A stretch of DNA of 64,000 nt from Octopus vulgaris. Taxonomy: Eukaryota. Shown here one piece after another: positions 3,023-62,498 of this stretch. The notes under the pieces are model-generated. The model saw only the letters and a list, made by a program, of their open reading frames with translations. It ran no database searches and was not told where the DNA came from. A program made the translations under genes and the position numbers. The stretch is from contig OX597818.1 in assembly GCA_951406725.2 (NCBI GenBank), positions 41,664,001 through 41,728,000 of the forward strand, in the 5' to 3' direction. Position 1 is the stretch's first letter. Each line of letters opens with the position of its first letter.

Positions 3023-4567
3023 TAATGCACGAGTACAATTGTTTGTCATATTATTACTTTAGCTTAGTGGGGAGATGAATGCATTCAAAGATATAATGCA
3101 TTTGTCTTTCAGAGGAAAAATTGAATGAGTTGTTTAAATGTTTAGAACAGAGTAAATTAATAGTATGCAAGCCAACAGACCAAAAGGTTGGCAATTTATA
3201 TTTCATCATCAGCTCTTATAAGGTGTATTCCACACATCTGTTAAGTTATTCAGAATTTAAGATTTAAGCCAGTGTTAACATATGCAGAGTACATTAAAAA
3301 AATTACTATAAATAGTTATGCAGTGAGGAAAACAAATATTAATCAATGATAATATCTTATTTTGGAAAACATAGGGCTGAGTGGAGCCATGATGTTTTAG
3401 CCTTGTCTTGCCAAAAACATGACAAGCACTCTAGTGTTGGTGCCATAAAATGCACCCAGTACACACAAAAGTGGATGTCACTGGAAGGAAATCCACTCAT
3501 AGAATTCAAGCCAAAAATGAAGTGTACAAGCAAGACACCTACAAAAGCTGTAGATCTTAATAAGAACTGACTATGATGACCCACTTAACTCATAACAACA
3601 TGGACAGCTAGCATAAAATGATGACAGCTGAAGAGAACACCATATATGTTGATGTCTTATTGAAAGTTCAATAGGGAAACAATCTTTACTGTACTTGCCA
3701 GGGTATTGATGAGAGAATCACTACATAAACAGATGCAGACAAATAGAATTGCATAGAGATTAAAACTCAGTTTACCTAGACGCAAAAGTTACCGTAAGGA
3801 GATATAGTTTGCTATTGAAAACATTAATAGTACAGTATGATGAAAACCAGTATTTTCTTTTAGAGTTAATAAGCATCTACTTAAATAGGTTTGGCAACAA
3901 GGAATCTACAGTTTATCTTCCATTGAATCATCACTGCATGCAAATTAAGTCTTCAGATGTACTCTGCTGACCCCAAAAAGTTACAGGGTATACTCATTTA
4001 TTTAGATGCATTGAATGTAAGTTTGATTATACAAGGAAGTGAGCTGGCTAAATATTTGAACTTCTTGAAAAAAGCAATTTATTCAACATGAGATGCGCAA
4101 GTTGGAAAAAAGCACTTCTTGATAAAAACTTGGCAATAAGGTGAAAATATCAGCGCTAATAATATACATTATTTACGTCCAAGTTTGCATTACCTTCCAA
4201 TCTAATCAATTCTATTTATAATTTGTGCAGGTTTGGATGTGGATTTTTTTCTCTATGTAAAATATTTTTCTCATTTATTTTTTTAAATGTAATTGTATAT
4301 TGATATATTCATTAAAACATTTATTAGCATCTCACATTAAAACATTGCCTCCATGTCTGCAACAGGACTGCTGCCACACAAATACACACACACACACACA
4401 GTGAAAGGATCAGCAAAGGTCATTGAAGCTGCCCTCACCAAATGATTTTACAAAAAGTGGTCTCTAATTATGCAAGTAAAACAGTGTATTAATGACAATT
4501 AATTACCTTAATCCATCTGAAACTAAGTAACAACATAGACATTTAATCCCTTACTTGATCACCTTAA

Positions 4568-9779: not shown

Positions 9780-10603
9780 TGTGTGCGCACACGACAGAGT
9801 GTAAGCACCCTGAGAGAAATGCTGGACATAAGAAGCATCAGATGTGGTGTGCAAGAGTGATGCTTGCGATGGTATGGTCATGTACTGCGGATGGATGAGG
9901 AGAGATGTGTGAAGAAGTGCCACTCCCAAACAGTTGAAGGTATCAGGGGGAGAGGTAGACCCAGGAAGACATGGGATGAGGTAGTCAAGCATGACCTCAG
10001 AGCGTTGGGCCTCACAGAGGCAATGACGAAAGACCAAGATCTCTGGAGATATGCTGTGACTGCAAAGACCCGGGCTGCTTCCTGCACCAGTTCCGCATAG
10101 CCCCTGCCCATTCAAAGTACCTTGGATTTCAGAACAACCCGCTGTGCTTGAGGAGACCTATTGAGTCAAGTACATGAACATCGAAATAAATATCAATGGA
10201 AATAGTAGTTGTGATACCTGTGCCGGTGGCACATAAAAAGCACCATCCGAACGTGGCCAATGCCAGCGCCACCTCGACTGGCTTCTGTACCAGTGGCACG
10301 TAAAAAGCACCATCCGAACATGGCCAATGCCAGCGCCGCCTTGACTGGCTTCCGTGCCGGTGGCACGTTAAAAGCACCAACCGATCGTGGCCGCTGCCAG
10401 ACTCCCCTGGCACCTGTGCCGGTGGCACGTAAAAAGCACCCACTACACTCGCGGAGTGGTTGGCGTTAAGAAGGGCATCCAGCTGTAGAAACACTGCCAG
10501 ATCAGACTGGAGCCTGGTGCAGCCTCCTGGCTTCCCAGACCCCGGTCGAACCGTCCAACCCATGCTAGCGCGGAAAACGGACGTTAAGCTATGATGATGA
10601 TGA
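9780..10603 (+). mobile_element. RTE LINE 3' fragment
   Basis: ORF 9864..10100 (RWYGHVLRMDEERCVKKC...GRGRPRKTW), four GTGGCAC..AAAAGCACC units and an (ATG)n tail. Confidence 0.9.
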
Positions 10604-22914: not shown

Positions 22915-23550
22915 CATGGTAGATGTAGGAAAATGAAGGTGACCCCAAGACTGGCAAGAGAGTTTGTTTGTGGATGATGTGAGAAAGGAGCTGGAGGGCT
23001 GGCAGAACCAGTGGAAACACTATGTGACAAGGTGGAAACAGTGAGATGTTTTGTTATTTGGGAGATAGGGTGGATGTGAAGCAGCTGTGACAGCAAGAGC
23101 GAGACTTGGCTGGGTGAAGTTCAGGGAATGTGGAGCATTGTTATATGAGAAAAGGTTCTCATTAAAGATGAAAGGAAGGGTCTATAAGATTTGTGTGAGA
23201 GCTGCAATGCTGTATGGCAGTGAGAAAGAGATGGTAATTTTGAGGACTGAGAGAGCAATGGTGAGAGAAATGTGTGAGGTGAAGCTGCTGGATAAGAGGA
23301 GGACTGGGGATTTGATGGGAATGCTGGAATGGTTGGCATGGGCATGTTCTGAGGAGGGTGATTGCATTTGAGGTAAATGGAGTGTGAAAGCAAGGTGACT
23401 GAGGAAAAGGTGGAGGGGACAGGTGGAGGAGGAGATTGGAAGGGTTGGTTTGAAAAAGGAGGATGCCAATTGTTATGGCAATGAGGTAGATCCAGCCACC
23501 CCCATTAATGGGGACAAAACTCAGATTTAAAACACTGGATGATGATGATT
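22915..23550 (+). mobile_element. Older RTE LINE fragment
   Basis: ARARLGWVKFREC...LKMKGRVYKICVRAAMLYGSE; (ATG)n tail. Confidence 0.75.
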
Positions 23551-42200: not shown

Positions 42201-44006
42201 CGAATGACAACTAAACCCTAAAGAAGCATTTATTGAAAGAGTTCAACCTAAATCATACATCAGAAGGACTACAAATTTTATTTGATCAACCAAATGGAGA
42301 AACCATCATGACGTGAGATTTTTCTAAATAATTCTCGAAGTCAAAGATTTTATGAATGGATGTTTGAAAAAAATAATGGACAAATACACAAAATATGAAA
42401 CAACATCTTTCTAAATAAATTTATAGGTAAAAAAAAAAGAAGTTTCTATGAAACATAGTCTTTAAGTAAGGAGTGGATATTGGCAATTTGTTTACAAATC
42501 TCAGGTCAGAAAAGCGAACAGAACAAAGATATAGTCATATATGTGCATGTGTGTGTGTGGTAAATTTTAAACAATAAAAAAAAAAATGAAATTTAGTGAA
42601 ACTAAAATGATGTATTCGGTGAATTGAACAATCTAGGATCAATAAAATAAGCAGTTGTCCATGTGACTTAAATTCCAGAAGCTCAAATTGCTTCAGAGGT
42701 TGGGGAAGTATGGCGGTTGCTGCAACAAGGGACATCATTGAGAAAATAACGGGTGTTACTGTCAGAAAATATACAGAAAGCAGTGGTTAATATATGGGTG
42801 ACAGTTTACTCGCATGACAATAGAAGCAGCTAACAAAGCTGGTCTTCATGACAACACGAAAAAAAAAAAAAAACCCTCCAAAATGGTTACCAGCATTTCA
42901 AATATATAAATATATATATATAGGGGTAGCGTTTGAAATGAAGGTGACTAGTTGAAGGAGGATGACACGGTACCCACGTGCAGAACTTTGATGATACCTC
43001 GAAATACCCGAAACTGTAGATAGAAATGGCATTCATAAACATCCTCTCTTGTAAAGCCACCAACCAGACCCAGTTAACTAAATAAAATGAGACTAGTTAT
43101 TTGCAATTAGCACAAATCAAACAAACAATTTTCTGACAATTCGGAACTCGACGAAATTACACGAGAAGTATAACAATGCAGCTTAGTCAGCGTACAGATA
43201 CCTTGTTTGGAAATGCATTTTATTATCAGTTAATTAGAAGCGGGTAGCAGATTTTTATGGAGCAGAAATCCATCGCTAAACAGAATGGTACACACAAAAA
43301 CAGTATATCGACAAGAAACACAATCTAATGATGTCCTATATTAAAGTGAAAACGCTATAGATAAATGACTATTTCCTAAGGATTGCAGGAGTCAAGGTTA
43401 ATTTTAGCTTATGTTATCTAATAAATTGCTAGGTTCGGATTTTAGTAGAAATTATTATTAATATCAAGAAGGTGACCAAAACATTTTATATTTTCTTTTT
43501 TAATATAGTTGAGGGAGAAACTAAATGTAAAGGAGAAAATTTAGTACGCAATGGGATAAAGATTAGAGGATTAAAAGGGATTTTCCCCCCTACCGTAAAT
43601 GTGCAAAGAGGAATTTGTTTTCGGAAGGGAATAGATAAAGATAAAAGTGTAAGCAGATGGGTGTGAGATCACACACGTCAATGAATATTCCCACGTAAAT
43701 TAAACACGTAATTATATTAACACACTTGGTCATTCAAATATTTAATTATTTGTCAATTGTATTTAACATACAGAAAGGATTTGGAGTACAAGAAAAATTT
43801 TCTACACCACACAAAAGTTTGACAACTATTCACAAATATTTTGATCGGATTCACAAATAAATCGGTTGTAAAATGAGGAAATTATTATAGGTTATATCAT
43901 GACCCTTTTTTTTTAATATCCAACTCGTCCATTTGTCTGAGACAAACAGCTACAGCAACCACGGCAGTACCAGCCGATGTTGATGTTATCATTATGTGTT
44001 CCTTAC

Positions 44007-44735
44007 CTCTGATATTTCATCATCATCGCTGGTTGATATGTCAGCAGGTCCGAAGATAGGAGTCGAATGTGTACTGTGTCCACCACCACCGACAACAACA
44101 GAAGATGGGAAAGGCGGTGATGATGGAGATGTCCGTTTAGTCCTTGCTACTGTCGCAGAGCCCCCAAGTCGTAAGATGGGGGTACTCTTCATTGTTTTTT
44201 GTGATTTCACAGATGGGATATCACTGCTGTTGTTATCACTGCAATTACTAAGGAGGTGGTTGCTTATGTTGCTATTCCCGGGAACTCCTGAAATGGCTGT
44301 GCTGCTTTTTTTGCAGGTCGTCGTCGAAGTCGCCCCAGAAATAACTGTAGTGGACGTAATATTGTTTGTGACAACTGGGTAAGTACATGTGTGACTCGAA
44401 GACGCACACGAAGTAGTCTGTGTAGCAGTAGAATTGGTCACAGATGATTGCACCACTGCTTCTCTGTTGCACTTTTTTCTGTTACCGTTTCTCCTAGTTC
44501 CTTCCATTTCAGTATGAAAACCACCAGTATCGCTATCGTTACCAGTATTAACACTAGAACAAGCTAAAGTACTGTGTTCAGTTTTATTACTCTTACTTTT
44601 ATCACAGGTAGTGCTGTTCTCACTTGCTTTGATTGGTGTTGAAACCAAAGCTGCTAGTGTTGCAGATGCATTTGTTGAAATTGTAGTGTTAAATGTGTGT
44701 TTGCTGGTACCGGACTTGGCCGAATTCTGTTCCAT
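44007..44735 (-). CDS. ANKHD1: ANKHD1/ANKRD17 (mask) orthologue, first coding exon (243 codons, Ser/Thr-rich N-terminus)
   Basis: ATG at 44735 inside ORF 43992..44978 (MEQNSAKSG...STSDDDEISE). Ends at a canonical donor GAG|GTAAGG (phase 0). The acidic end DDDEISE joins in frame to VESFFLGQE of the next exon, matching the ANKHD1/ANKRD17 motif EDEVSEVESFILDQ. The start codon choice is inferred. ANKHD1 versus ANKRD17 cannot be resolved, as invertebrates usually have a single co-orthologue. Confidence 0.85.
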
Positions 44736-44979
44736 TTCAATACTGTCTATACACAAATACCCAATATATGTGGATTTGTGTATAAGGTTACAACTGGTGT
44801 GTTTAGATATTAAAATACATTCATATATGTGTCTTAGTAAATCAACTGACACATATGTATATTGAAAGAAAATTATAACTATATATATATAAATACACGT
44901 AAGAGTGTTTAGTATCTTGAATAAAGAATATTTTACGTTAGTATGAGTTTTTTTGGGTTTTTTTTTAGCAAAGTTCAAA

Positions 44980-46560
44980 AAGCAATATTAGGTTATGTGC
45001 AATAATAATAATAGCAAGTGGGCAAAGAAAGGAATAAGTGAGCATTTATCTAACTTTCGTGACCCTTCCTTTTTCAGATATTGAACAACATACACTATAG
45101 TTGGCGTTGGTAATATTATGAAATTTTGAAATAGCTGTAAAATTAAATTTCATAGTCTTTTGTTACTCGGTAATGTTACATAAATTTTTTCCTTGACCGC
45201 CATCATCACCGAAGTGCTATAATACAAATACCCCGGATGATTATCGCTGCGCAAGTTCACGAAAGTACTATACACATACACACACACACATATATATATA
45301 TACATACATACATACATATAAATACATACATACACATACACAATTAGATTTACATTTAATTATCAGTTATTTTCCCTGTTTTTTGGGTGTTTTTATTATA
45401 GGTTTTTTATCTGTACTCTCTTTTTCTGAATTTACCAGAGTATTTTTTATTATTGATAAAGTAAATACTTTCTCAACCTAAGCGAATAAAAAGGCTAACT
45501 TTAGATATTGCTTTCGTATTTCCATAGCAGTTATAATTGCCAAAAACAAGGTCGTTTCCTGTTATCTGCCAAAATTTGCAAATAATCTTTTTATTCGTTA
45601 ATAAATCTATAAATTTCACGGGATAGTCATCTCACATATGAAGATGTTTAGATACACACACAAAAAAAAAAATGAAGTATAATTCAATTGAATTTTATTT
45701 TATTTTTTAATAACATCAGAACCAGTGACGTAACGCAATCATTACAAAGTAATATGTTCAGCATCTCTTCACAGATTTTGAGCTGAAGGAGTCATTGCAA
45801 TCAATAAGAAACTCCAATAGGATGAAAATTCATTTATATTTACGATAACTCACGAGACACTTAACTCTTTTATTTTAGAGTTTAATATGTTCGGAGTAAA
45901 ACACGATTACTTCCCCTGTTAGTCAAACTCTTACTTCGATCATTTCTTACAGCATTTACACGTACACACACGCACACATATCTATTGTAGCTTGTCACTA
46001 CGTGAGATGATCACGGGGTGGGGGGTACCTCGTATATGTGTAGTCACTTTCAGTTTGATGTTCTCTTCTTTTCATACGTTTCATAATTTATTGAAAAGCG
46101 AATGAATCCAGAACTAGAGAGTACTGAGTCATGACATTGCATTGCCACGTTTGTATTGTCGAAAACTAGGTCTTTGGGATTTGGTCGTGCAGTGGCGTAG
46201 TGTGGGGTGTGCGGAACGCCCTGGGCTGCTATTGAGTTGGTGAGTGAGGGGAGAAAACATTTTGAAGATATGCTGTGCCACTATTCGTGTCATATTCCTG
46301 GCTGTACTCTCTTGTTAATTTAACCACTTCGTTTTTCTTTGCGGCTTAGTCTTCGGAGGTAGTGCCAGCTGCCTAAGCCTACAAATTAAAAGAACGAGCC
46401 CATTTGCTAGTCGTTCGACTTCCTTGAAGTAGCAACCAAATCTTCCTCGTATAAGGAGAAAAGACACTTGATAATGTAATCATACACAAAAGCCAGGGTG
46501 GTCGTGGCCGTTTGCCTTTCTTCATAGGTCTGCTCGTCAGGAATTATTTGGTACTAATCA
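44980..46560. promoter_or_regulatory. Likely promoter/5' region of the ANKHD1-like gene
   Basis: Upstream of the first coding exon and visibly CpG-retaining. YY1-like CCGCCATC at 45197-45204 and CRE-like TGACGTAA near 45726. The TSS cannot be determined. Confidence 0.4.
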
Positions 46561-48985: not shown

Positions 48986-49598
48986 TGCCACACCCTAGCG
49001 GTTGAGGGAACCCGTGGAAGAGGCAGACCCAGGAAAACCTGGGACGAGGTGGTGAAGCACAACCTTTGAACTTTAGGTCTCACTGAGGAAATGACTAGAG
49101 ACCGAGACCTTTGGAGGTATGCTGTGCATGAGAAGACCCGGCAGGACAAGTGAGACCATAACCCATGGCCTCTACATGGGATGTAGCCAGTCCACTTATG
49201 CATACCTTTCCTTCTTGGGACACAAAACTCTACTTGTGAAAGTCGAAATCGATCAACATCAAGGGAAATTGCAGCTGTGATACCAGTGCCGGTGGTACGT
49301 AAAAGAACCATCCGAACATGGCCGTTGCCAGCGCCGCCCCGACTGGCCTTGTGCCGGTGGCACGTAAAAAGCACCATCCGATCGTGGCTGTTTGCCAGCC
49401 TCGTCTGGCACCTGTGCCGGTGGAACGTAAAAAGTACCCACTACACTCACGGAGTGGTTGGCATTAGGAAGGGCATCCAGCCGTAGAAACATTGCCAGAT
49501 CAGACTGGGCCTGGTGCAGCCTTCTGGCTTCCCAGACCCCAGTTGAACCGTCCAACCCATGCTAGCATGGAAAGCGGACTCTAAATGAAGATGATGAT
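48986..49598 (+). mobile_element. RTE LINE 3' fragment, same subfamily as 789-1850
   Basis: Highly similar to the reverse complement of 790-1420. Confidence 0.9.
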
Positions 49599-54637: not shown

Positions 54638-55660
54638 CAGGTTGCAATGGGTAAATTGTTGCCATCTTATATTTTTAATTTTGCACATGCACATTCTTTT
54701 TGATTTTGTTGACTATACAGTATAGTAGGGTCAGTTGAGCACCATCTGTGATAAAAACAGCACCATGACACAATTCACTCTGCCAGAAATTTGGAAACAA
54801 CATGCTGTACTGCTTGGCATTCATGCCAGAAGCTCCTTTACAAACATTTCAGAGTGTTTGGGTGTCAGTCTTAAGACATGTATCGAGAGTGATAAAAATC
54901 AAACATCCAGTCAACATGGTGTTTGGAGTGATCATGAGTAATGACAATGTTATGCTGCCATTCAGCTTCCCACATGGTCTCAGATTCAACATGGAGGCTT
55001 ACATCAAGTGCCTGGAAGAGGTAACACCAAAGATGAGCTGAAGGCAAGGATTATAGCAACAGTCACCAACTAGGTGACATTCCAGAAGAGTTGCGGTGAT
55101 TCCAAAGTCATCTGGAGGCTGTGGTTGAAGCCAATGGCCATTTTATTGAATAAATTTACTCTTTAGTATTTCATGATATTTTTATGTAATTTTGTTAAAT
55201 ATTATCTTCTTCATCATCATCGTTTAACATCTGTTTTTCATGCTGGCATGGGTTGGACAGTTTGACTGAGGTCTGGAGAGCCAGCGACTGCACCAGGCTC
55301 CAATATGATCTGGCAATGTTTCTACAGCGGGATGCCCTTCCTAACACCAACTACTCTCAGAGTATAGTCAGTGCTTTTTATGTGCCACCTGCACAGGAGC
55401 CAGTCAGGTGGGCCTGGCATCAATCACATTTGGATAGTGCTTTTTATGTGCTACCAGCATGGGAGCCAGTCAGGGGACACTGGCATTGACCATGTTCAGA
55501 TGATGCATTTTACGTGCCATAGGAATGGGAGCCAGTCAGGGGCCACTAGCCACAGTTACGATTTTGGTCTTACTTGACTCAACAGATCTTGTTAAAATGA
55601 GATGTCAGTGTTATTTTTGTTTTTGCATAATTTAGATGACAGTTTATTCACCATACCCTG
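54638..55660 (+). mobile_element. Tc1/mariner-superfamily (maT/DD37D-like) deleted element with a nested retroposon
   Basis: TA-flanked imperfect TIRs CAGG...CCTG. The peptide KHPVNMVFGVIMS...MLPFSFPHGLRFNMEAYIKCLEEV resembles this transposase region. Interrupted by an RTE-tail element at about 55210-55590. Confidence 0.65.
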
Positions 55661-59394: not shown

Positions 59395-59462
59395 AACACA
59401 CACACACACATACAAACATATAAATACACACATATATAAAATGTGTGTGTGTATATATATTC

Positions 59463-59508
<46 letters not shown>

Positions 59509-59613
59509 GTATGCATATGTATATATGTGTATATACATATATACATACATATATATAAATATATATATATACATATATATATATGCATATGTATATATTT
59601 GTATGCATATGTG

Positions 59614-59651
<38 letters not shown>

Positions 59652-59706
59652 TAGATACATTTATAGATACATACATAGCTATCAATCTTTCCCTGTAGCT
59701 AGCAGG

Positions 59707-59744
<38 letters not shown>
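59395..59744. repeat. Compound (TA)n/(TG)n/(CA)n microsatellite
   Basis: Directly visible. Similar tracts at 6580-6915, 25330-25440, 31356-31430, 62570-62670 and 63105-63162. Confidence 0.9.
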
Positions 59745-59746
<2 letters not shown>

Positions 59747-59803
59747 CATTATTGGTGAATTGAAGAAATGGAGCTGAACGCAGATTGAACAGAAATCGTT
59801 TTA

Positions 59804-59893
59804 TTTCATTCTACACGTGTTTCGAAAGGCACAAATTACCAAAATCCGATGGAATAATGGGACCATATTGTGTCTTTCTCTTCAGGAAGAAAA
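59804..59893 (-). ncRNA. Type I hammerhead ribozyme motif (mirror copy)
   Basis: Reverse complement of 60060-60149 in the left arm of the palindrome. Confidence 0.8.
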
Positions 59894-60059
59894 TAGGAAA
59901 TCCGTTGGAAAAACAAAAACAGAACAGAGGCGGAGCAAAAACAAATCGAACTATGCTCCTAAGAGCCCATGGCGGAGTTTCGCCATGGGCTCTTAGGAGC
60001 ATAGTTCGATTTGTTTTGCTCCGCCTCTGTTCTGTTTTTGTTTTTCCAAAGGATTTCTA

Positions 60060-60149
60060 TTTTCTTCCTGAAGAGAAAGACACAATATGGTCCCATTATT
60101 CCATCGGATTTTGGTAATTTGTGCCTTTCGAAACACGTGTAGAATGAAA
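60060..60149 (+). ncRNA. Type I hammerhead ribozyme motif with long stem II
   Basis: Core CTGAAGA (60068-74); stem II GAAAGACACAA/TTGTGCCTTTC (10 of 11 pairs); GAAA (60130-33); palindromic stem III ACACGTGT; predicted GUA cleavage after 60141; stem I TTTCTTC/GAATGAAA with one bulge; AATAAA just downstream. Confidence 0.8.
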
Positions 60150-60358
60150 TAAAACGATTTCTGTTCAATCTGCGTTCAGCTCCATTTCTTCAATTCACCA
60201 ATAATGTTCTAATTTCAATTATCCGCACCAACGCACGGTTGCAACACCATATGGTTGTACCTCCAACCGTGCTGTTTTACTGCTGTGATTTTTGCTACTA
60301 AGGTATCGGTTAAACTTTTGATTAATCTACTACAAGATTATTCATCTTTCTATTTCAC

Positions 60359-60396
<38 letters not shown>

Positions 60397-61246: not shown

Positions 61247-62498
61247 CAAAGGCCAGCTGAAAAGTTCATAGGTAGACTAAGATACTGTTATGGAATGTTA
61301 CCAAATGAGGTTTATTTTTCAACATAGACTCCCTTGCAGTTCACACACTTCTTCCATTGGTGAAGAAGTTTTCATTCTGTTGGCCAAAAAAAGTTATCAA
61401 CAACAGACATGATGTTCTCATCACTGTGATACTGGTTCCTAGCCAAATGTTTTTTCGTGTTGGAGAACAGATAATACTCAGATGGGGCCAAATCAAGTGA
61501 ATATGGAGGTTGATGAACCAGCTCAAAGCCATCTATGGAAGCTATTGAAAGTAAGGACTTGTGAGCTGGAACATTGTCCTGATGAAACAAGACCCCTTTC
61601 ATCAGTTTTCCTGGGCACTTATTCTTTTTAGCCTTTTATAACTTTCTCAGCAAGTTGGCATAGTACTCTCCATTGATGGTGTGGCCTTTTTGAAGATAGT
61701 CAATAAACACAATGCCTTTTGCATCCCCCAAAACTGAGGCTATTATCTTCCCTTCAGATGAAATAACATTGGCTTTCTTTAGGATAGGTGAGGAGGGGTG
61801 TTTCTACTGCATGGATTGTCTCTTTGTCACTGGCTCAAAGTGATGAAGCCAAAACTCATCCTTGGTTAGGAAACATTCAAGGGAACCAACTGGATCTGCC
61901 TCAAACAATGTAAAATTTTCCTGTGATGTGATCAGCCTGATGCACTTTTGGTCAAGTGTCAAAAGACATGGCACCAACCAAGCAGAAACCATTGTCATAC
62001 TAAATTCATTGTGCAGAATATTGTCAACTCTCTCATGGAGTATGCTAATAGCATTGGCTATTTGCCTGTTATCCATCGCCATGAACATAATCCTTGTTTT
62101 CCTTGGTGGTGGCAGTTGAAGGACATCCAAATTCTGGACCATCTTCAAGACTCTCCCTTCCTTCCTAAATTCAGTTGCCCACTTTTTTTTTGGCATTGTT
62201 GATAAAGCTGGAGTGTCACCCCTAATGTAGCAACCATATTAGCATAGATGTTGATAGGGGTTAAACTCTTTTTTTCCTACAGATATTTAATAACACCACA
62301 ATGCCAAATTTTTTTGATTTTCAAGAATCGTCAATGCAGTTTACTTTTGAAGTCTTCTTTAAACAGTGAGATGTCAGTTTACCTGGAAAGAAACAATGCA
62401 GCTATTAATAACAAAGGTCAAAATTAATGCATACAAGATTTCACAGTGCTAGTCTCACTCCTTCATAGTCAGCTTATGAACTTTTCAGCCCACCCTCA
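61247..62498 (-). mobile_element. Full-length decayed mariner transposon (transposase pseudogene)
   Basis: TIRs containing GCTGAAAAGTTCATA; about 1.25 kb. Fragments with WLVPCLL (WVPxxL), TKDEFW, FHQDNVPAH and PPYSLDLAPSEYYLF (YSPDLAPSD motif), with frameshifts. Confidence 0.92.

Follow-up and report, generated by a model that had tools for sequence, protein, structure and literature searches.

A head-to-head palindrome with two hammerhead motifs in Octopus vulgaris is the terminal repeat of a Penelope-like element, probably primed at two fixed sites

Inverted termini, hammerhead motifs on opposite strands and targeting of (TA)n tracts have all been published for Penelope-like elements (PLEs). 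In metazoan PLEs, the available part of Cervera and De la Pena (2014; PMC4209133) describes pairs of hammerhead motifs lying 100-700 bp apart on opposite strands. Head-to-head PLE junctions have been read as products of self-priming, with an antisense template suggested (Arkhipova et al. 2013, PMC3846280, in its accessible portion), and the tails of these elements have been attributed to resolution mediated by the endonuclease, EN (Craig et al. 2021, PMC8557442). Excerpts of Frangieh et al. (PMC11167929), on a Poseidon PLE, describe no strand difference in the start site in vitro and no RNA-seq ends at the hammerhead site. The promoter of the D. virilis Penelope element is internal, according to the accessible text of PMC2377424, and recently active Penelope families have been described in an octopus by a report whose available text leaves ribozymes unmentioned (PMC13282606). 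Outside subscription papers, Repbase and Dfam, we found no report on the family described here, or of twin priming in PLEs.

In this report, we analyzed a window of 64,000 nucleotides from Octopus vulgaris (contig OX597818.1, positions 41,664,001 to 41,728,000), which contains a foldback palindrome of 464 bp (59745-60208) between (TA)n tracts (Table 1). Its left arm (59745-59974) pairs with 59981-60208 across a spacer of 6 nt (59975-59980), and the right arm extends 153 nt past the palindrome, ending at 60361. A preliminary description had reported such a palindrome with a hammerhead motif on each strand, and both the palindrome and the opposite-strand cores were recovered here. The two 1-nt indels that it had counted between the arms were also present, but its 'few substitutions' amount to one inside the arms (59904/60050), a second mismatch (59744/60209) lying at the (TA)n border. 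The AATAAA at 60148-60153 was considered as the end of the element and rejected. Matches to miRNA precursors (MIR8562, MIR847 and others) in an Rfam scan were all far below their gathering scores, and a miRNA-precursor reading was rejected, since these matches reflect the long hairpin and the (TA)n.

Table 1. Features of the palindrome and its flanks (positions in the window)
Feature	Position	Strand	Basis or remark
(TA)n target tract, left	59708..59744	.	sequence; within TRF array 59452-59745
Short (S) arm	59745..59974	-	element 3243-3472; outer end at the S site; 99.6% identical to ORF-bearing unit in L032
Type I hammerhead, S arm	59809..59888	-	CUGAAGA from 59885, GAAA from 59823; predicted cut after 59812
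Untemplated junction G	59975	+	likely copied from RNA cap; G in 45/61 genome matches
Long (L) arm = pLTR / 5' UTR	59976..60361	+	element 3238-3625, from putative transcription start A59976 to L site; 99.2% identical to unit
Type I hammerhead, L arm	60065..60144	+	stem I 60065-60067/60142-60144, CUGAAGA, long stem II, GAAA, palindromic stem III
S site, AU-rich patch, short-arm ends	60199..60211	+	putative second priming site; same place in sister family
Tail of about 150 nt, one arm only	60209..60361	+	predicted conserved hairpins between two unpaired AU-rich end sites
L site, element end	60352..60364	+	putative first priming site; in tandem copies 47 nt upstream of ORF start
(TA)n target tract, right	60362..60396	.	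tandem-repeat scan

The + strand hammerhead comprises CUGAAGA at 60068-60074, GAAA at 60130-60133 and a palindromic stem III at 60133-60140. Its stem II (60075-60085 with 60119-60129) closes a loop of 33 nt and consists of 10 pairs and one A-C mismatch, not of the 11 pairs first described. The type I core (CUGANGA, GAAA, NUH and three stems) is present, in agreement with the earlier prediction of a type I hammerhead with palindromic stem III and a cut after 60141. Within the window, only the core matches of the two arms open stem II with at least 5 pairs; a third core match, at 23349 (4 pairs, with an insert of 96 nt), lacks the 3' part of a hammerhead. The two motifs lie on opposite strands, so that any single transcript carries just one in sense. 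In a search with the Rfam model Hammerhead_1 (RF00163), a check suggested in the preliminary description, the model does align at the motif (60062-60147), with a weak score of 14.8 bits (E 0.61) that falls short of the gathering score of 34 because of the 33-nt loop II, and Hammerhead_1 was absent from a wider Rfam scan of the window. Conservation of the core among genomic copies, on which the earlier reading had been staked, was found: both halves are intact in 206 of 219 matches (duplicates included, the sample being partly chosen on the 3' half). A sister family described below has an identical core. Relative to the present family, both partners are altered in two pairs of stem II and in the central pair of stem III, and two further stem II pairs no longer form in the sister family; the comparison covers two lineages and not many events. 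The stem III palindromes are predicted to pair as dimers (-10.3 and -7.0 kcal/mol), and the hammerhead is predicted to need a dimer for cleavage. The conserved core, short stem I, long stem II and dimer-suited palindromic stem III are those of the type I hammerheads of metazoan PLEs and non-LTR retrozymes in the available part of PMC4209133, whereas the 33-nt loop II, the lack of short tandem repeats and the genomic ends at the predicted cut set the present motif apart.

The window's own genome (G000, 2.8 Gb) was searched with 59978-60361, and the 40 that were scored, out of 2,058 candidates, were all full-length matches about 99% identical or better. Most of them continue upstream into common sequence. 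On contig C1, four copies stand in tandem about 3,625 bases apart, and the right arm is the 3' end of that unit; on the numbering of the natural 3625-nt unit, used hereafter, 59976 is 3238, 60141 is 3405, 60208 is 3472 and 60361 is 3625. One tandem unit, in locus L032, holds an intact ORF of 895 aa, and such an ORF is also intact in L064. A 26-nt hammerhead core motif has 1,823 exact matches in the genome, and 27 matches run through the element end toward the start of the ORF. As judged by sequence comparison, the palindrome represents the terminal repeat of a 3.6-kb, protein-coding PLE that is both young and abundant. The preliminary description had suspected a relative of PLEs and proposed a search for copies joined to an ORF with RT and GIY-YIG domains; the 3.6-kb unit with its intact ORF answers to this, and the identity of both arms to an ORF-bearing copy (Table 1) agrees with its claim of youth. 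Its notion of a non-coding element in its own right has to be given up: the palindrome arose by 5' truncation from a PLE that codes for a protein, and the length of the arms differs freely from copy to copy. A fragment of a second, unrelated PLE (L032:6917-8863; Pfam GIY-YIG, E 0.0007), immediately upstream of the tandem array, also forms a head-to-head palindrome.

Pfam gave no RT and no GIY-YIG match at threshold for the 895-aa ORF. With a structural model of the ORF (pLDDT 74.9), the top six Foldseek matches were all TERTs (E 3e-8 to 2e-7). A C-terminal GIY-YIG motif (VY..YVG..R..H, with later E and N) aligns with homologs, and there is weak BLAST similarity (E 0.003) to a Pfam-positive GIY-YIG fragment. 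The features of C-terminal EN+ PLEs were all found, namely a single ORF with an RT of telomerase type, GIY-YIG, tandem (whole or partial) and inverted pLTRs, and a tail. The ORF carries RWL and DKT (among 106 homologs, 93 have DKT/S and 67 have RWK/R), has no CCHH and ends in CNLC..E..N..CPH around conserved E and N. An RW motif, DKT in place of DKG, absence of CCHH, a CxxC..E..N..CxH C end, a canonical pLTR hammerhead and (TA)n insertion are shared with the Hydra clade of C-terminal EN+ PLEs (Craig et al. 2021, PMC8557442), and the RT motifs match those of published Hydra proteins, compared by eye. The differences from that clade are a unit of 3.6 kb instead of under 3 kb, two disordered inserts, and the lack of the CxCX5C linker, here as in the sister family. 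This linker is present in 74 of 76 homologs. It was absent from all three frames of the unit, and from each of 12 stretches taken at 11 loci in the two families (one stretch of the sister family being short). Because the defining linker is missing, the element is filed, on its motifs, as a Hydra-like PLE and not as a plain Hydra member. The two inserts are in frame (residues about 485-559 and about 632-764 of the ORF at L032:2286-4973, - strand); the second is S/N-rich and replaces the Cys linker, and both recall the N-rich inserts of Adineta Penelope elements in the accessible part of PMC3846280. In alignment, a homolog from Argonauta hians (P0010) is a Hydra-like PLE RT, although its source labels it 'GATA zinc finger domain-containing protein 14-like'. 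Hydra-1_Obim is a separate family, of 2507 bp and with a different hammerhead.

The outer ends of the family were surveyed in a census of the first 100 matches to the 26-nt motif, taken in coordinate order on C1; these gave 70 loci, of which 69 were fetched, the tandem array being omitted. The ends fall into two classes about 150 nt apart, long (L, about 3609-3625) and short (S, about 3455-3479), L being the tighter. (TA)n targeting, already proposed in the preliminary description together with a check of the flanks, is evident from the 119 of 123 outer ends that adjoin (TA)n. Two (TA)-abutting ends were found at 47 of the 69 loci, and 46 of these are L+S, the other being S+S (L074, a nested three-arm case); under this strict rule, L only was seen at 13 loci and S only at 9, and solo copies of either class sit between two (TA)n tracts. 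There are 92 palindromes whose junction lies near the ribozyme; the first 50 of them served as a second sample, which was L+S at 49 loci, the remaining one being S with an odd end. The sister family (about 72% DNA identity; 2,375 search candidates), whose hammerhead has a GUC cut triplet, shows the same long/short architecture, with both end classes at homologous places, and its 10 distinct two-armed loci (28 distinct loci were fetched) are all L+S. Over the three samples, 105 of 107 two-armed loci thus pair L with S; about 230 loci were examined overall. One sister copy (L009:1939-2579; G000:C10, about 56106200-56106840) lies in a (TA)n tract beside a copy of the first family. The choice of site is not mere TA-likeness, because a 12-nt (AT)n patch at 2921-2932 was never an end across the 69 loci. 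Between the two sites, the tail has 30 predicted pairs, 3 of them changed on both sides, and is flanked by the AU-rich S and L sites, which are unpaired in the prediction; this fold draws on two lineages, in an alignment of eight rows of which three started slightly further upstream. At about 150 nt, the tail compares with 30-40 nt given for PLEs (PMC8557442); neither such a tail nor counted L+S pairing was found reported for PLEs in the literature outside subscription papers, Repbase and Dfam.

Several readings of this pairing can be weighed at this point. Two independent insertions into one tract were rejected, as no (TA)n lies between the arms and the pairing is non-random. Strict L+S pairing is also predicted if the S end is a cut site, both arms starting at L and the endonuclease trimming the tail of one of them during resolution; the S site is AT-rich, and the scatter of S ends, against the tighter L ends, would suit trimming. 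We nevertheless consider this quite improbable, for exactly one arm would have to be trimmed every time and solo S copies would have been trimmed without a partner, and in the available part of Frangieh et al. (PMC11167929) the borders of the Poseidon tail were mapped to two RT start sites in vitro. The structure might, finally, be an artefact of assembly or of fold-back reads. The junction of the window locus itself is unbridged by the contigs listed from four runs, and the two 1-nt deletions in its right arm are found again, at identical homopolymers, in two other tight palindromes, where one arm has them; among 122 arms (duplicates included), these deletions were seen only in tight palindromes, and the two 1-nt indels may be consensus errors. 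An artefact is hardly credible for the palindrome as such, given that its flanks differ in sequence and that each arm ends at its own fixed site beside (TA)n. Head-to-head joints occur in contigs of runs X1, X2 and X14, and S ends entering (TA)n in all four runs, so the architecture does not stem from the window's assembly.

The inner ends of the arms accumulate at one A. A non-native base precedes A3238 (59976 in the window) in 61 matches, most often G (Table 1), and 29 of 30 fetched A3238 matches are true boundaries; at two control positions there were 9 and 2 matches, with a single G in each case. Where the bases are untemplated by the partner arm, they are G in 13 of 13 cases (one, L104, within a short duplication), and locus L201 has the extra G on both arms. 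Reverse transcriptases can copy the RNA cap as an extra G. A literature search for this cap-G copying found nothing to the point. A59976 lies within CAGTT, which we take to be initiator-like. These footprints make it likely that A59976 is a transcription start, that the extra G is a cap signature and that the template is sense and capped. The window's form is common, junctions within about 30 nt of the A59976 point being found at 107 loci.

A second accumulation of ends coincides with the predicted ribozyme cut, where 17 matches have a non-native base and 12 are true boundaries, at 11 loci; two control positions had 2 matches each (12 versus 2 and 2, p about 0.001). In 7 loci both arms end at 3404-3408, and G occurs at only 1 of the 12 cut-site boundaries, which is what an uncapped end should give. 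The cut-site peak is modest: at the 21 junctions that lack microhomology, the top position is 3406, with 7 of 42 arm ends, the four positions 3412-3415 together holding 10 of 42. Pausing of the RT at the ribozyme helices could mimic this peak. In the 50-locus sample, which overlaps the 17 matches, 9 of 50 junctions are centred on the palindrome TTTCGAAA, a cluster larger than the cut-site peak, and 11 of 50 are perfect 8-nt palindromes. Junctions at L104, L113, L117, L118, L163, L166 and L206 contain short repeated pieces of the element, as if the RT had slipped or re-primed several times. In the literature outside subscription papers, Repbase and Dfam, we found no PLE cap signature, ribozyme-cut genomic ends or linker-less Hydra-like element.

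How the two arms relate to each other bears on self-priming, in which the 3' end of a single primed cDNA would fold into a hairpin and copy itself, the second strand stopping at S. In 12 of 46 pairs, the type of the window locus included, no more than 30 nt separates the ends of the two arms, and the arms share alleles in 458 of 463 comparisons (56 pairs); in young pairs (n = 48), alleles agree in 193 of 195 comparisons, the discordance under permutation being 37%. Near-symmetric junctions, junctions centred on perfect 8-nt palindromes and the allele identity of the arms are all consistent with self-priming, which explains the first two equally well and may hold for the symmetric subset. Allele sharing, for its part, would be compatible alike with one RNA molecule, one source locus or later gene conversion. 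As a general account self-priming seems unlikely to us, since an S arm copied from the L cDNA cannot exceed it, yet in 23 of 46 pairs it is the S arm that extends further 5', by more than 30 nt (in 11 pairs it is the L arm), without any overlap of the arms in 11 of these 23, and solo S copies exist. The same observations argue for two independent cDNAs. A sense template is indicated by the extra G, which stands in sense at one particular A. The junction in the window contains a G that is untemplated, and it lacks hairpin microhomology.

We therefore favor, as the probable origin of the palindrome, a head-to-head insertion of PLE terminal repeats from two cDNAs, on both strands of the (TA)n and from two fixed sites, the template probably being a capped sense RNA. 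This reading builds on the parent element, the end classes and their pairing, the inner-end hotspots and the allele sharing. Judging from such genomic footprints, a capped transcript would begin at A59976 inside the pLTR, and the element's GIY-YIG domain would nick both (TA)n strands. One nick would prime reverse transcription at the L site (60361) and the other at the S site (about 60208), these sites being the AU-rich flanks of a structured RNA domain of 150 nt. Each cDNA would extend a variable distance 5'-ward, either along one shared RNA, by strand displacement, or along separate sister RNAs from a single source copy, and the cDNA 3' ends would join, either blunt or via short complementarity. 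In the window copy, both cDNAs would have reached, or nearly reached, the RNA 5' end (+1 and +6), to give a loop-less palindrome with one hammerhead per strand; its template would have been uncut, a minority of insertions likely coming from a template cleaved by the hammerhead. L-arm stops inside the tail (11/46) are not in excess over those in the next 150 nt (about 13/46, counted by eye), so no block by an S-primed complex is seen.

In LINE-1 twin priming, two primers from opposite target strands use one RNA, and an inverted 5' part results. The mechanism proposed here would resemble it in the two primers and in the inverted 5' part, and would differ in the fixed site of the second primer, in the absence of poly(A) and in the arms, which usually overlap (35 of 46 pairs), so that strand displacement or a second RNA is needed. 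Penelope and Poseidon PLEs, in the accessible parts of the sources (PMC8557442, PMC3846280, PMC11167929), likewise have an inverted 5'-truncated copy at the 5' end, a tail at one end and tandem arrays, and in Poseidon two RT start sites border the tail (PMC11167929, excerpts). What differs here is that the pairing was counted and is nearly strict, that inner ends carry a likely cap G or lie at the ribozyme cut, and that both sites are TA-like, whereas the start sites in the available part of Frangieh et al. are not homologous to the target. The lack of a strand difference in start site and the absence of RNA-seq ends at the hammerhead that the same excerpts give for Poseidon (PMC11167929) count against the explanation favored here. 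The fuller proposition, in which priming of a capped sense RNA takes place at two fixed sites (one for each strand of the target), the pLTR hammerhead cleaves this template in vivo and the Cys linker is dispensable for (TA)n targeting, is put forward as tentative, with slightly less than an even chance of being right.

The preliminary description had gone further, and saw in the palindrome a non-coding, retrozyme-like element with a possible built-in switch, formation of dsRNA competing with the ribozyme. That the short form recurs, with the 107 loci mentioned above, and that a read-through transcript folds into a very stable hairpin (-409.5 kcal/mol) speak in its favor. The listed junctions, however, vary from locus to locus, so short forms arise anew each time rather than by copying of a unit. 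Unlike non-LTR retrozymes (bioRxiv 10.64898/2026.07.22.740005, available part), they do not form tandem arrays, and the parent element is coding. Non-LTR retrozymes are short non-coding tandem repeats with a hammerhead in each unit, whereas here the arms are head to head and the tandem unit, of 3.6 kb, codes for a protein. An independent element of this kind is largely refuted, and we regard this view as a whole as very improbable. In a host read-through transcript the palindrome is predicted to form a long hairpin in which the ribozyme is buried, and competition between dsRNA and self-cleavage could apply to such transcripts only. If the promoter is internal here too, by analogy with D. virilis Penelope, transcripts would leave the centre outwards and contain no antisense copy. 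Contigs of four runs that we guess to be RNA cover much of the 3625-nt unit, and are silent on transcription, strand and ends. These data give no support to the foldback as a selected silencing device; as an object, the palindrome is an ordinary PLE by-product, marked by variable arm lengths.

Elsewhere in the window, an exon-like S/T-rich ORF (43992-44987, - strand) ends near a GTAAG donor at about 44005, 15 kb from the palindrome; it possibly belongs to a host gene, an upstream intron of which could hold the palindrome. Two further ORF fragments on the - strand resemble a mariner transposase (61804-62238) and the C end of an RTE-type LINE (1254-1661). Related tandem repeats of 63-67 nt at 10218-10440, 49282-49438 and 55370-55547 are probably part of one abundant SINE-like repeat.

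For PLEs in general, the origin of complex tandem and inverted structures is an open question (PMC8557442), as are, in the accessible parts of the respective sources, the sense or antisense nature of the template (PMC3846280) and the activity of the hammerhead in vivo (PMC4209133, PMC11167929). For each of these points, a family as young and numerous as the present one, with its ORFs intact, allows a base-exact prediction: a start at A59976, a cut after 60141, and priming at about 60208 and at 60361. If the proposed mechanism is true, two-site priming would give inverted pLTRs and a one-sided tail in one step, and (TA)n targeting would be independent of the Cys linker that has been proposed as its guide; the linker-less family is a natural test of Cys-linker guidance in microsatellite targeting.
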